Assembly: GCA_951406725.2 (NCBI GenBank)
Contig: OX597815.1
Location: 161,510,001-161,574,000 of the forward strand
Direction: 5' to 3'
Length of the DNA: 64,000 nucleotides
Origin: Octopus vulgaris
Taxonomy: Eukaryota
Part shown: positions 734-43,593 of the stretch, in pieces
Layout of the letters: each line of letters starts with the position of its first letter
Numbering within the stretch: the stretch's first letter is position 1
Position numbers and translations under genes: made by a program
The notes under the pieces: model-generated
Databases searched by the model: none
Seen by the model: only the letters and a program-made list of their open reading frames with translations
Told to the model about the DNA's origin: nothing

Positions 734-970
734 AAGTTTAATTTGTCAAAATATTTTCATCGCTTTAAAGCACGAATTTTTGTCAGTGAACAGGTCGCAG
801 TCTTAAAGTGACAAAAATATTTTGACAAATTAAACTTAAATGTTGAAGTGAATCAAACGGCTTTTGTGTGTTTCTTAAATGGCTTACAAACACCTTCCAC
901 ATTGCAATTGTTTTCGTTTCAGCACACGATCTCAGATCAAATCACTTGCTATGCAAGTACATCTCCGTAA
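734..970. mobile_element. Small non-autonomous element with partial terminal inversion, inserted in a (TTA)n tract; same family as 32934-33273
   Basis: 734-768 is the reverse complement of 803-838; 770-970 matches 32934-33135 in reverse and 33135-33273 directly; (TTA)n on both sides. Confidence 0.8.
779..829 (+). ncRNA. Hammerhead-like motif, G3-C8 core variant (A at position 12 in this copy)
   Basis: tttgtca GTGAACA g gtcgc-agtcttaaa-gtgac AAAA atat T T tgacaaa: 7-bp stem I, 5-bp stem II, palindromic AATATT stem III. Confidence 0.55.
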
Positions 971-1015
971 TATTATTATTATTATTATTATTATTATTAT
1001 TATTATTATTATTAT

Positions 1016-1264
1016 TTCTCAGAGCTCTCAGTCTTACTTGCTTTAGTTGATTCTGTGAGAGCAGGCAGCAACTTATTGTCAGAGGTCTCGCAGAGTCTCT
1101 TTCTACAAATCATAAGTTTTAGTACCTGGATGTTAACTTAATGTGGAGGGTATTCAACACCCAAGCACTAATCTGAAAATCCTAGCTGTACCAAATAGAA
1201 CAGTTTTTTGGGTCTGCTCTATCCTCATCTCAGTTCCAATTTCTCCGACATATTTCTCATACCT
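1016..1264 (-). mobile_element. 3' end of an R4/Dong-type non-LTR retrotransposon
   Basis: Minus strand reads RYEKYVGEIGTEMRIEQTQKTVLFGTARIFRLVLGC* (QKxxLxGTARIxRxVL terminus); the 3' UTR runs into a (TAA)n tract, the known Dong target. Confidence 0.75.
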
Positions 1265-1374
1265 GAAACTTCAAAGTCATTGTCAATATTATTCTTTTTA
1301 AAGAATAATAAATTAAAAATCGACAAAAGTATGGGGTAACTCTTCAGATTAAAGTAAAATGGTTTTTATTATAA

Positions 1375-38425: not shown

Positions 38426-41400
38426 TTTTGTTAATTCGTCGTTCAACTCCATTCTTTCATATAAAAAAACATACAAATTTCCACACGAAAGCACGTAACT
38501 TCAAACGTGTCTTCTCTGATGTGAATTTGCTACCCAGGTATCGGTTAACTGAATTATCCATAACAAGATAATTCATTCAACTACTCTTATATATATATAT
38601 ATATATATATTCTTTTATTCTTTTACTAGTTTCAGTCATTTGACTGCAGCAAATGCTGGAGCACTGTCTTGAAGGGTTTTTAGTGAAACAAATAACCCCA
38701 GGACTTATTTCTTAAGTCTAATACTTATTCTTTCTCTTTCTTTTTGCTGAACCACTAAGTTACAGTGATGAGGGAACAAACACAGACACAAAGACACACA
38801 CACATAAATACACACACACATACAACACACACACACACACACACACACACACACACACACACATGGCAGTCTTCTTTCAGTTCCCCCCTACCAAATCTAC
38901 TCACAAGGTAGAAGACACTTGCCCAAGTCACCATGCAGTGAGACTGAACCCAGAACCATGTGGTTAGAAACAAGTTTCTTACTACACAGCCACACCTGTA
39001 TGCATATGGGCACTTACTGTATATATTTCTTTATTGCCTACAAGGGGCTAAACATAGAGGGGACAAACAAGGACAAAGGGATTAAGTCAATTACATCGAC
39101 CCCACTGCATAAGTGGTACTTATTTAATTGACCCCTAAAGGATGAAAGGTAAAGTGAACCTCAGCAGAAATTGAACACAGAACGTGACAGCAGACGATAT
39201 ACCGCTAAGCATTTCGCCCGGCATGCTACCGTTTCTGCCAGCTCGCCACCCTAACTATATATACTTATTGTATATACGTATTGCATTACATCATTAGGTG
39301 CAATTTTAACTGGATTATATAGGTGCAGGAATGGCTGTGTGGTAAGAAACTTGCTTTCCAACCACATGGTTCCAAGTTCAGTTCCACTGCATGGAAACTT
39401 GGCAAGCGTCTTCTACTATAACCTCGGCTGACCAAAGACTTGTGAGTGGATTTGGTAGATGGAAACTGAAAGAAGCCTGTTGTATGTATATATATATATA
39501 TATGTGTGTGTGTATGTATGTATGTACGTATTTGTTATTTGTGTCTGTGTTTGTCCCCCACCACCATTGCTTGACAACTGAGGCTGGTGTGTTTGCGTAC
39601 CCGTAACTTAGTGGGTCAGTAAAAAGAGACTGACAGAACAAGTACTAAGCTTACAAAGAATAAGTCCTGGGGTTGATTTGTTTGACTAAAGGTGGTGCTC
39701 CAGCATGGCTGCAGTCAAATGACTGAAACAAGTGAAAGAATATATATATTTATATATATATACATATGTATGCATATTGTATACGCATATTTATAAGTGT
39801 CAGCGTTTATATATGGTGTATGATCTGGTTTCCTTTTCTTACTGCCACCACAACCACCACCACCAAAGCCGCCACCACCACCACCACCACCACCACCACT
39901 ACCACCACCAAACTACCACCACAACCAACAACAACAACAACACTAGATGACGTGTGGTTTAGCATACATGAGTGACATTAAGGAGATATCTAGATCCAGG
40001 CACAGGCAGGAATGTGTGCTTAAGAAGTTCCAGACTGACCAAAGCTTGCGCGTCGATTTGGTAGATGGAAAACAAAAGGATCGCATAACACACAAACACA
40101 TACACACACACACACACACACACACACACACACACATGCGTGTGCACACATATGTATGTATGTATGTATGTATGCATGTATGTATATATGTATGTATGTA
40201 TATATGTATGTATGTATGTATGTGTCTATGTGTGTGTATGTGTTTATGTATGTATGTATTATGTGATGAGGTATGTCTGTTTGTCTTGGTAATGTGTGAT
40301 AGTCATAAATGAGTATTATAATCATGCAAGCAGTGTCCTTCATTTCTAAACCACCATGAAGCATGTTTGGCCATGGGGAAATATTGACTTGCTTGGAAGC
40401 AGGCAAGGGTTAGCAACTGTAAGAGCATACAGTTGTAGAAAATCTGTCTCAACAATTTTCATCCACCCTGCGGAAGCACAAGAAAAATGAATAAATGCAC
40501 CCTTTTAAAGCCTAGCCAGGCTCATGGGCCTGGTTTCCCTGGTTTCAATGGCATATGTGTTCCCCAGCTGGACAGAAAACTAGTCCATCACAGCGTTACT
40601 CATTTTTGCCAGCTGAGTTGATTGGAACAAAGTGTCACCCTGTCCAGGAATCGAAACCACAATCTTACGATCATGATGCTGACTCCTTAACCACTAGACC
40701 ACACACCTCCACAGGGAAGCATGAGAAAGTGGACATTAAAATGATGGTGATGATGATGATGATGATGATGATGATCCTTAAGTGTGAATGTCCATGTATT
40801 TAGGAGTGCATGTGTATATCCATAATGCACGTATGTATTCATTTGTTATTGTGTTAGGTCACTTGAGTGCTACAGGTAAGGTGTAATCCAGTAAAACTAG
40901 TTACTTGGTTCTCATCGTTAATGAGGAAAAACCCAAAATTTCTTAACCAGGTTAACTTAGTGAAAGAGGCTTGCAATAAAAAAACAGATCTGCTAAAAGG
41001 ACAAACTGACCTGTCAGAAGGTCAGTGTCCATCTAGCAACAGAGTATGATGTGGGTGGGTGGTGGACGGAAAGACATAGAAAAATGTGAGATAGTGAACA
41101 AGTATGATGTAATGCCTGTAAAACCACTTTGTGAGTTCACTAGTTTCTGTCATAATATCTAACTAGAGCAGTAGCAGGAGTAGATAAGGCTCCTTAACCA
41201 TAGTGGTGAAGAAGACTACCTCTCTGCACTACTTTGCTGCCTTGCAAGTGAATATATGGAATTAAGAAAATAAAGGTTTTAGAGACACCCACTAAGAGGA
41301 AAACATACTGAGGCATTTATATTTCAGGTAGTTCCTGACTCTTCTGTTATTGGAAGGTGTGTTTTGGTGTCGTAAGTTACCTAACCACTAATAAGGTTTA

Positions 41401-43462
41401 CTAGAATAACAATGAGCCTGGTGCAGCCATCTGGTTCACCAGTCCTCAATCAAGTCGTCCAATCCATGCTAGCATGGAAAGCAGACATCAAACGATGATG
41501 ATGATAATCATAAAGACCAACTATGGGTAGTAAGCTATGAAATTCTTACATTCCCTTGATTTTTGGTAATTCAGACCATCTCACAGTCCCAGCAGACAAA
41601 ATGGGAAAGGTGTTGCCCTGGAGGACGGTGAGGAAGATGCACTGGAACAGCCACTCTGACACATGTACTTGAACTTGTGGACACCCATCTCCACCCAGAT
41701 AGTGGTGTGTCATGATATGGTTCTGGGGATCCAAGAATGCTGGAGGTTTCCACTGCCACAGGCTCAACCATAAACCTATCAGAGAATGACCAACTGATAC
41801 TTTGACAGTTTGCTTTGATGAGTAGCAGAGCCTGGGTTGGTAGTTGAATAAACCTAGTTTCACTTGCAAACAGCCATCTCTGCCTCGTCAGCAGTGAGCA
41901 GAGAGATGGTGCAGGGGCTAAGACCACCAGAGGTCCCCACTGCGACAGGCTCGACCACAAACCTGTTACAGGGTGATTGATACCTTGAGAGTTTGCTCTT
42001 CTAAGCCTGACAAGCAGTGGAGCCTGGGCTGGAAGCTGGACACACCAAGTTGCTGCTGGAGAAGGCGTCACAGCATGTGGTATCCCAGATGAGAAGCTTA
42101 CCACTATGGAACTTCATAGGGAACATAGCATTGCTGCTAACTGTGCACCCTAAGTATAACTGTAAATGTTCATTGCAGAGGTAGTTTCTCCTGTTGTGTG
42201 GTTACTAGATTTTGGATTTCATAATGCATTCAAATCCATAGGAGAGAAAGAGATAGAGAGAGAGTATGTGCGTGTGTGTATATGTGTGTGTGTGTGTCCA
42301 AGCTTTCTTATCCATTTGTTTATTCTAAGTGATGTATGTGCACCTTCACCCTTTCACATTTGAACTGGCCATATCCGGCTCAAACATTCTACTGGGTTTT
42401 ATATTCAAACTGGCCAGATCTGTCTTCTCACGCACATCCTGCAAGGGCACTCTGAGAATAAACAATCATATCATTGAAATCTCAAAGCTTATATATATGT
42501 GAGAATTTGTTTTGGAGTTTGAATATGCACCTGAATTAGAAAAATGTGAAGTTTTTAAATAGATTTGTTAAAATCAACTACATGTAAATTCAGGTGCATT
42601 TTGAAACCCCAAAACAAATTTCTTATATTTTTTTCCAGTGTGGGACTACAACTCCTCTTTCCATATATATATATATATATATATATATATATATATATAT
42701 ATATATAGTATTAATAATGATCAAGAGAATGGAAATTTTATCCACATCTATAATTTTATTAAACAGGAGCGGCTGTGTGATACGTAGCTTGCTTACCACC
42801 ACATGGTTCCGGGTTCAGTCCCACTGCATGGCACCTTGGTCAAGTGTCTTCTACTATAGCCTCAGGCCTACCAAAGCCTTGTGTGTGGGAACTGAAAGAA
42901 GCCCGTCATATAAATATGAGTGTGCATGTGTGTGTGTGTGTGTGTGTGTGTGTGTGTGTGTGTGTGTGTGTGTGTGTGTGTATGTGTGTGTGTGTGTGTG
43001 TGTGTTCGTGTGTTGGTGTTTATCCCCCCCACCATCACTTTACAACCGATGCTGGTGTGTTTACATCCCCATAACTTAGCAGTTTGGCAAAAGAGACCGA
43101 TAGGATAAGTACTAGGCTTACAAAGAATAAATCCTGGTGTCAATTTGTTCGACTAAAAGTGGTGCTCCAGCATGGCCACAGTCAAATGACTGAAACAAAG
43201 AATTAAAAAGTTATTTACAGCATTCTCTCTTGTACCTACATGTTTTTCAGCTGCATCAACTTCACATTATTAAACATGCAACCACGTAGTGCCATGTTCA
43301 GTACAGTTTCATCAGGGTCCATTATTTACTGTCACTTGAAGTGAAGCTGAAGGAATCAGTAAGCTTATACATATATATATATATATATATATATATAGGT
43401 CCCGGGTTGAGTCGGGGTTAACCACAGTAAATAAGGTACTCAATACATAGCAGAGTAAATTA

Positions 43463-43593
43463 ATTTATTTTATAGAAGGAGCTTCTACAGGACTAGAACT
43501 GTTTCATTCAAAAGAAATCATCAGGTGCTTCCTGATGATTTCTTTTGAATGAAACAGTTCTAGTCCTGTAGAAGCTCCTTCTATAAAATAAAT
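43463..43593. repeat. Perfect palindrome (63-bp arms, 5-bp spacer) between (TA)n tracts
   Basis: 43463-43525 is the reverse complement of 43531-43593. Confidence 0.95.
43527..43575 (+). ncRNA. Type I hammerhead ribozyme
   Basis: gcttc CTGATGA t ttc-tttt-gaa t GAAA cag-ttctagtc-ctg T A gaagc; GUA cleavage site. Confidence 0.8.

Follow-up and report, generated by a model that had tools for sequence, protein, structure and literature searches.

A stretch of 64,000 nucleotides of the Octopus vulgaris genome (contig OX597815.1, positions 161,510,001 to 161,574,000, hereafter the window) contains a series of small repeats that carry minimal type I hammerhead motifs. An earlier note, made from the sequence alone, had listed these motifs, which we label as families A (779, 33074, and 33144), B (2228), C (8755), D (12233), E (19525), F (37665 and 38327), and G (43527). 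As shown in Table 1, all the named motifs were located in the window, at these coordinates or within a few nucleotides of them, and the identities at the 3:8 pair were as claimed, being G-C in A, U-A in B, and C-G in families C to G. The motif families are real and high-copy, and their setting in Penelope-like elements (PLEs) is known biology. Families A, B, C, D, F, and G are, with good confidence, the 3' ends of coding PLEs; their window copies are likely abortive insertions, and the hammerhead fold, including the G3-C8 core, is likely kept by selection. Family E stands apart as an element resembling a short interspersed nuclear element (SINE).

Table 1. Hammerhead-bearing elements in the window (pLTR stands for pseudo-long terminal repeat, RT for reverse transcriptase, and UTR for untranslated region)
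Family	Feature	Coordinates	Strand	Hammerhead	Remarks
A	Solo 3' pLTR with short inverted arm	pLTR 769-973, arm 732-764	+		Inside a (TAT)n tract
A	Hammerhead	779-829	+	G3-C8 core, G12 lost
A	Inverted insertion	32928-33277		33074-33124 (-), 33144-33193 (+)	Long tail on left arm only
B	Inverted insertion	2066-2377		2228-2264 (-), intact, U3-A8	4-nt palindromic stem III
B	Second arm of the insertion, damaged	2283-2319	+		Long tail on left arm only
C	Inverted internal segment of PLE	7329-8474	-		C-terminal half of RT, CX4CXXC linker, GIY-YIG endonuclease
C	3' UTR, pLTR, and tail	8473-8992	+	8758-8797, C3-G8, C at position 9	Stem III imperfectly palindromic
D	Old 5'-truncated PLE end	12174-12603	-		Last codons of an endonuclease-like frame, 3' UTR
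D	Hammerhead	12233-12270	-	C3-G8
E	tRNA-like head	18781-18869	+		A-box and B-box-like motifs
E	(AAT)n linker	18861-19475	+		Interrupted at 18899-19440 by an unrelated insert some 540 bp long
E	Body, hammerhead and short tail	19465-19624	+	19526-19569, C3-G8	4-nt palindromic stem III
F	Inverted insertion, PLE 3' UTR and pLTR	37617-38610		37673-37755 (-), 38335-38417 (+)
G	Inverted insertion in (TA)n	43388-43593		43527-43575 (+)	Mirrored arm ends at 43525

Core positions U4 G5 A6, G12 A13 A14, A15.1-U16.1, and H17, together with a Watson-Crick 3:8 pair, were present as family majorities. A at position 9 was present in six families, the exception being family C. The motifs were minimal type I hammerheads of the Penelope type, as the earlier note had stated, and a search built on CUGANGA would indeed miss families A and B. 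Other parts of that description held for some families only. A palindromic stem III was found in A, B, D, E, and F, but it was imperfect in C and an ordinary 4-bp hairpin in G; the extra core nucleotide was lacking in family F; and inverted arms were present in A, B, F, and G, with an inverted segment of the open reading frame (ORF) in C, whereas D and E were not inverted in the window. Moreover, the motifs cannot be called sequence-unrelated, since A, B, and C are sister families whose proteins are 50-63% identical and whose tails align. The hammerheads of F had a long stem II and an 8-nt palindromic stem III. The first pair of stem II in G was U-U, a U10.1-U11.1 mismatch of the kind tolerated in the hammerheads of Perreault et al. 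2011 (PMC3088659).

With a strict hammerhead descriptor, the window gave five matches, consisting of D, E, and F (C3-G8) and two non-pairing chance matches, against a mean of 0.65 matches, of which 0.1 were Watson-Crick and none C-G, when the dinucleotides of the window were shuffled block by block 20 times. A, B, C, and G were not in the strict scan. A relaxed descriptor, which was run on the window without a shuffle control of its own, returned 18 matches, including A and B and several junk matches, and families C and G were picked up by neither scan. Therefore, the reality of A, B, C, and G rests on their genome-wide families. No hammerhead model of Rfam matched the window at E values up to 1. 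The genome searched comprised 2.8 Gb in 227 contigs and is rich in microsatellites. Exact-pattern matches numbered 5,139 for A, 2,216 for G, and 3,619 for E, with no match to the reversed-pattern control of each, and the first-look candidates from DNA searches ranged in number from 132 to 2,221 per family. Furthermore, a minimal-hammerhead scan of 899,521 fetched bases found 46 distinct motifs, 44 of them with a Watson-Crick 3:8 pair, while the same bases after shuffling gave two matches, both non-pairing at 3:8. Since these bases had been chosen by family, the scan shows specificity, not frequency.

The motifs had been regarded as non-coding elements mobilized by Penelope, a description that fits E alone. 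In longer copies of A, B, C, D, F, and G, RT and/or GIY-YIG sequence lay upstream of the hammerhead in the sense orientation. This ties the six families to PLE coding sequence, so the window copies are solo or truncated pLTRs, as are most genomic minimal hammerheads (PMC4209133). For family A, locus L199 contained an open frame of 671 codons that comprised RT and GIY-YIG domains with a CX3CXXC linker. Two pLTRs flanked this frame, the one upstream inverted and the one downstream in sense, and the G3-C8 hammerhead of the latter lay in sense approximately 1 kb downstream of the frame. The top matches of the L199 protein in Atlas scored 0.97, and their clusters carried RVT_1, GIY-YIG, and PF26215. 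A 32-mer just upstream of the A hammerhead had 227 genome matches; of 30 such loci that were retrieved, 10 showed a match to the family C protein. The coding link of B came in pieces: its upstream pattern had four genome matches, one with RT and endonuclease remains upstream, and such remains were located upstream in loci L206/L242. The 3' UTRs of A, B, and G hold long built-in CA/TA-rich microsatellite tracts (L199:2870-3830, L206, and L240), which break DNA searches and hide the ORF link.

In family C, loci L121 and L122 showed an inverted pLTR, then the ORF, and then a sense pLTR with the hammerhead. The window frame of C had 370 codons (7459-8571, minus strand), and the segment was 96% identical to the near-full copy L121. 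A hammerhead antisense to its own ORF, as the window copy of C might suggest, was ruled out, because the near-full copies have it in sense and downstream and the window ORF is an inverted segment. An AT-rich near-perfect palindrome, in which no hammerhead was seen, adjoins this segment (6940-7330). Upstream of the D motif in the window, approximately 20 residues typical of the C-terminus of a PLE endonuclease were read by eye. Longer copies of F had a GIY-YIG frame upstream of the hammerhead, and RT or GIY-YIG frames were found in four of the five long inverted pairs of G that were fetched, the G protein being approximately 30% identical to those of A, B, and C. From their linker motifs, we tentatively take A, B, and C to be Neptune-like and F and G to be Nematis-like. 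The families resemble the Neptune and Nematis endonuclease-bearing (EN+) PLEs (Craig et al. 2021, PMC8557442) in the C-terminal GIY-YIG, the CX2-5CxxC linker, and the targeting of (TA)n; inverted 5'-truncated copies and one-sided tails, which recur here, are also described there, together with a microsatellite bias.

The three sister families provide the evidence on the 3:8 pair. Among 67 distinct copies of family A, G3 was present in all and C8 in 64, and loop II differed by subfamily. The G3-C8 core was also found in contig ends of three other organisms, in one of them with a different loop II. U3-A8 was present in 33 of 34 rows of family B, the remaining row being unrelated, and 15 of the 34 were intact from G12 to stem I. 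Eight hand-picked copies (four A, two B, and two C) out of the 23 distinct intact variants listed were aligned. Of 80 cells, 79 paired, and 5 of the 10 pairs changed on both sides, namely the 3:8 pair and two pairs each of stems I and II; the covariation score was 0.51, with slid controls at or below 0.08. The claim that the 3:8 pair covaries was thus borne out by G-C, U-A, and C-G across A, B, and C. With the 3:8 pair swapped and stems I and II covarying, it would be the structure that is conserved, not the letters. The pair forms only in the catalytically active conformation (PMC3884650). Position 17, whose pairing with position 3 is thought to trap the ribozyme (PMC3884650), was U in A and B, and in none of the seven families could it form a Watson-Crick pair with position 3. 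The GAAA that the earlier note saw in all motifs had lost G12 to A in all three window copies of A, but G12 was present in 61 of the 67 distinct copies, and the 5,139 exact-pattern copies have an intact GAAA. Since G12 of family A sits in a CpG, its loss in the window copies is likely CpG decay.

Minimal hammerheads in PLEs, their opposite-strand pairs, and natural U3-A8 have already been published (PMC4209133). The present motifs are like those PLE hammerheads in the short stem I, the extra nucleotide after A9, G10.1-C11.1, and the palindromic stem III, and also in the many families per genome, mostly as solo truncated copies, and in the opposite-strand pairs. The natural U3-A8 of Schistosoma PLEs in that work is as in family B. 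However, the 56 motifs of its Fig. S3, as read, include no G3-C8 and no C9 core, no cephalopod is listed, and in the present genome three sister families have three different 3:8 pairs. Natural covariation of C3-G8 to U3-A8 was described by Perreault et al. (PMC3088659), in whose main text, as excerpted, the term G3-C8 is absent and U3-A8 alone is reported. The excerpts of PMC10085705 and PMC6431247 contained nothing on 3:8. No report of a natural G3-C8 hammerhead was found, the scope of the survey not extending to subscription journals, to Lunse et al. 2017 (on dimeric PLE hammerheads), or to Przybilski and Hammann 2007 (on 3:8 exchanges), of which the last two may mention one. Judged from sequence comparison, a natural G3-C8 family with covariation between sister families is likely a new variant, and the flipped G3-C8 core is predicted, and likely, to still work as a ribozyme. 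Searches with CUGANGA fixed miss thousands of such motifs per genome.

The arrangement of the copies points to how the short inverted insertions may arise. As judged from the flanks, the GIY-YIG domain would nick a (TA)n or (AAT)n tract on both strands. Reverse transcription primed by each nick would begin downstream of the hammerhead, at either of two sites that lie 40-60 nt apart. Two tail lengths, long and short, were found in A (44/22), G (18/15), and E (12/18), and an inverted insertion typically had one of each; by analogy with the literature, the two start sites would account for the long tail on one arm and the short one on the other. The copies run through the entire hammerhead, so that the template must have been uncleaved RNA. 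Copies of G often end at or just 5' of stem I, where synthesis would have halted, and the two cDNAs would finally be joined head to head, while the hammerhead is predicted to cut the RNA weakly, as a dimer or with the help of protein. Both arms of the G insertion in the window stop at the 5' edge of stem I, and in 28 of the 33 G copies counted, which leave out any that end within the core, the 5' end was no more than 5 nt upstream of C3; in 20 of these the distance was 4-5 nt. This pile-up fits a stop of the RT and the start of a short RNA alike. The stop point adjoins a short palindrome and a possible splice acceptor (window 43518-43532; L207-L236).

The inversion center varies between copies, and inversion is therefore made at insertion. 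We considered whether the inverted arms usually come from two RNA templates, which was not upheld: among the first 100 matches listed of each family, the arms shared subfamily marks in 16 of 16 close pairs of G and 8 of 8 close pairs of A. Arms disagreed clearly in two loci and by single-site differences in two more. The 33074/33144 insertion and L029 each join two loop II subfamilies, and differences between arms were also noted in L023 and L024. Arms with different loop II subfamilies suggest that two RNAs may sometimes be used in one insertion event. Head-to-tail arrays of three to four family A units, 215-263 bp apart with a TA tract between, were also observed (L019:1039-1732 and L030:1052-1514). 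In the green anole, both strands are nicked in vitro and primed by a PLE, and two RT starts bound the tail; this element, Poseidon PAc (Frangieh et al. 2024, PMC11167929), is like the present ones in that both strands are cut and extended, the targets are AT-rich, and the template is uncleaved. PAc belongs to the Penelope/Poseidon clade, which is without the Zn-finger-like linker present in families A, C, and G. Cleavage of its hammerhead is protein-assisted, and C3G/G8C gave a partial rescue; G3-C8 was thus engineered there, whereas it is natural in family A.

Family E has a different layout, in which a head of approximately 75 nt is followed by an (AAT)n tract and then by the hammerhead body. 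The heads start at about the same place, giving a defined 5' end. A B-box-like motif in sense was present in 20 of 30 unbiased copies, and A-box and B-box-like motifs together in 11 of 30, with several others having the head on the opposite arm. ARAGORN recognized none of eight E loci at the default setting and 3 of 26 heads at a relaxed threshold, the Rfam tRNA search of the head gave no match, and a single annotated tRNA, that of a phage, was weakly matched (82% over 49 nt, E 0.05). Taken at the level of sequence, these features suggest a tRNA origin of the head. No PLE protein match was found in 50 E loci, nor in 10 more picked as possible long copies. No autonomous partner with the E 3' end was found; pairs with a long spacing proved to be E units whose (AAT)n tract held other, nested elements. 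Nevertheless, E shows the habits of PLEs, including the two tail lengths, head-to-head inversions with varying centers, and a partial tandem in L280. We therefore favor, with some reserve, the view that E is a PLE-mobilized SINE: a putative RNA polymerase III unit with a tRNA-like head and a 3' end borrowed from a PLE, which would be copied in trans by a putative partner. If so, E would define a minimal RNA signal for PLE mobilization in trans and widen the known SINE partners.

Octopus tRNA-derived SINEs were reportedly described by Ohshima and Okada in 1994 (as cited in PMC4824008), and E may be one of them. The Sm-alpha and Sj-alpha tRNA-type SINEs of schistosomes (PMC6765202) likewise have a promoter-like head, a hammerhead, and no ORF; unlike them, E has a minimal hammerhead of the PLE type, two tail lengths, and head-to-head inversions. 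A tRNA-headed SINE with a PLE end was not found reported in the literature outside subscription journals. It is conceivable, although we would not put it as high as an even chance, that this genome harbors both a natural, high-copy, self-cleaving G3-C8 hammerhead with three sister 3:8 pairs and a tRNA-headed SINE partnered by a PLE instead of a long interspersed nuclear element (LINE). In one subfamily of E, core position 7 is occupied by A and not by U (E loci L243-L282). The element of approximately 540 bp that splits the E linker in the window was also found in the (AAT)n linker of other, independent E loci (L106, L112, and L274), and it thus seems to target (AAT)n. Nested in the (AAT)n linker of an E arm (L273:1000-3050) was a LINE, presumably HERO/NeSL-like, in which RT and a restriction-like endonuclease at the C-terminus were recognized by eye.

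Several observations weigh against our reading of the six other families. The L199 frame is 5'-truncated and lacks a start codon, so that a complete active copy was not observed. The coding link of D consists of the approximately 20 residues only, to which tblastn added no support; Pfam gave the PLE proteins sub-threshold RT scores only, with no GIY-YIG match and no match for the C fragment in the window, and the PLE proteins were not recognized above threshold in the PDB sequence search. In the A/B/C alignment, the count of pairs changed on both sides was matched by 38 of 500 shuffles, and the eight copies trace to three family founders, so that they represent few covariation events and not eight independent lineages. 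Stem III of A, B, and D is predicted to form self-duplexes of marginal stability (-0.2 to +2.2 kcal/mol), and the z-scores obtained for the folds, between -2.1 and +0.4, are weak. Position 9 is C in 18 of 21 copies of family C (L081-L100), near-full-length ones included, and yet C spread; as hammerhead mutants did not affect the insertion of the anole PLE in vitro either (PMC11167929), catalysis may be dispensable. In addition, some short copies of A, B, and G could have come from short non-autonomous RNAs and not from full-length RNA.

A broader form of the last point holds that the solo pLTRs propagate themselves as an RNA of 150-250 nt that PLE protein would copy in trans and whose 5' end, set by a transcription start, splicing, or trimming, would lie at the 5' edge of the hammerhead. 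We regard this as unlikely, although it deserves weight. It would explain the sharp 5' boundary of G at the stem I edge, where contig loose ends fell at the same base in four of four runs and where the native G sequence resembles a pyrimidine tract followed by AG; an intron of D. virilis ends at helix I in the same way (PMC4209133). Short copies also predominate in A, with 5,139 core matches against 227 of the upstream 32-mer, these being different patterns that give a rough ratio only. However, short and long copies have the same subfamily variants and 3' ends, the truncation points in A and B are spread over approximately 5-45 nt, no constant foreign exon precedes the G boundary, and tandem arrays are rare (L019 and L030). 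It has also to be considered that the fold may be maintained not as a ribozyme but as a signal at which the PLE protein binds or pauses, with G3-C8, U3-A8, and C9 being tolerated as cutting is unneeded. The C9 majority in family C, the derivation of every inserted copy from uncleaved RNA, the normal insertion of catalytic mutants in vitro without RNA ends at the anole cleavage site (PMC11167929), and the success of Naiads, which thrive without a canonical hammerhead (PMC8557442), all agree with such a role. Nevertheless, the 3:8 pair that exists only in the active conformation (PMC3884650) is restored by double changes among all three sisters, which argues that cleavage is selected, and position 17 is kept from pairing with position 3 as a working ribozyme needs; a mere signal is thus improbable in our judgment. 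Since mutants insert normally in vitro, PLE hammerheads may not need to cut, and the wild types and swaps of A, B, and C form a ready test set.

The remaining explanations have much less in their favor. Retrozymes, that is, non-autonomous circular-RNA elements bounded by hammerhead cleavage sites, share the unit size of 150-250 nt, and PLEs are the proposed mobilizers of those in animals; the A copies in L019 and L030 also stand in tandem, 215-263 bp apart. The animal non-LTR (long terminal repeat) retrozymes of Cervera and De la Pena 2020 (PMC7229834) are also small repeats with type I hammerheads that occur beside PLEs. However, those have canonical tandem hammerheads and circular RNA, whereas the present hammerheads are minimal, the units are bounded by the PLE tail instead of the cleavage site, most copies stand singly or inverted, and ORFs lie upstream. 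The retrozyme reading is thus largely refuted, and we consider it very unlikely. That the G-C and U-A motifs merely resemble hammerheads by chance, as AT-rich palindromic repeats might, is scarcely credible, even though A and B were found in the window by the relaxed scan only, which returned junk too, and had no Rfam match. These motifs lie in their pLTRs just where the homologous pLTR of C has its C3-G8 motif, their stems are compensatory, and thousands of copies have G12. We therefore retain the view that the six families are the ends of coding PLEs with a fold that is likely under selection.

Other features of the window were also recorded. A 5S rRNA-like sequence (32248-32365, plus strand) scored 68.6 bits, above the Rfam gathering score, and is probably a dispersed 5S copy or a 5S-derived repeat. 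A non-PLE RT fragment (PF00078, E 4.7e-07) was present at 52049-52387 on the plus strand. MicroRNA models of Rfam matched palindromes and microsatellites in the window, and among the sequences that scored on them was a long palindrome with (ATC)n arms (11403-11536), which is likely another inverted insertion. Tandem arrays were located at 15010-15627 and 23908-24304, both with a period of 124 bp, and at 57554-57795, with a period of 80 bp.

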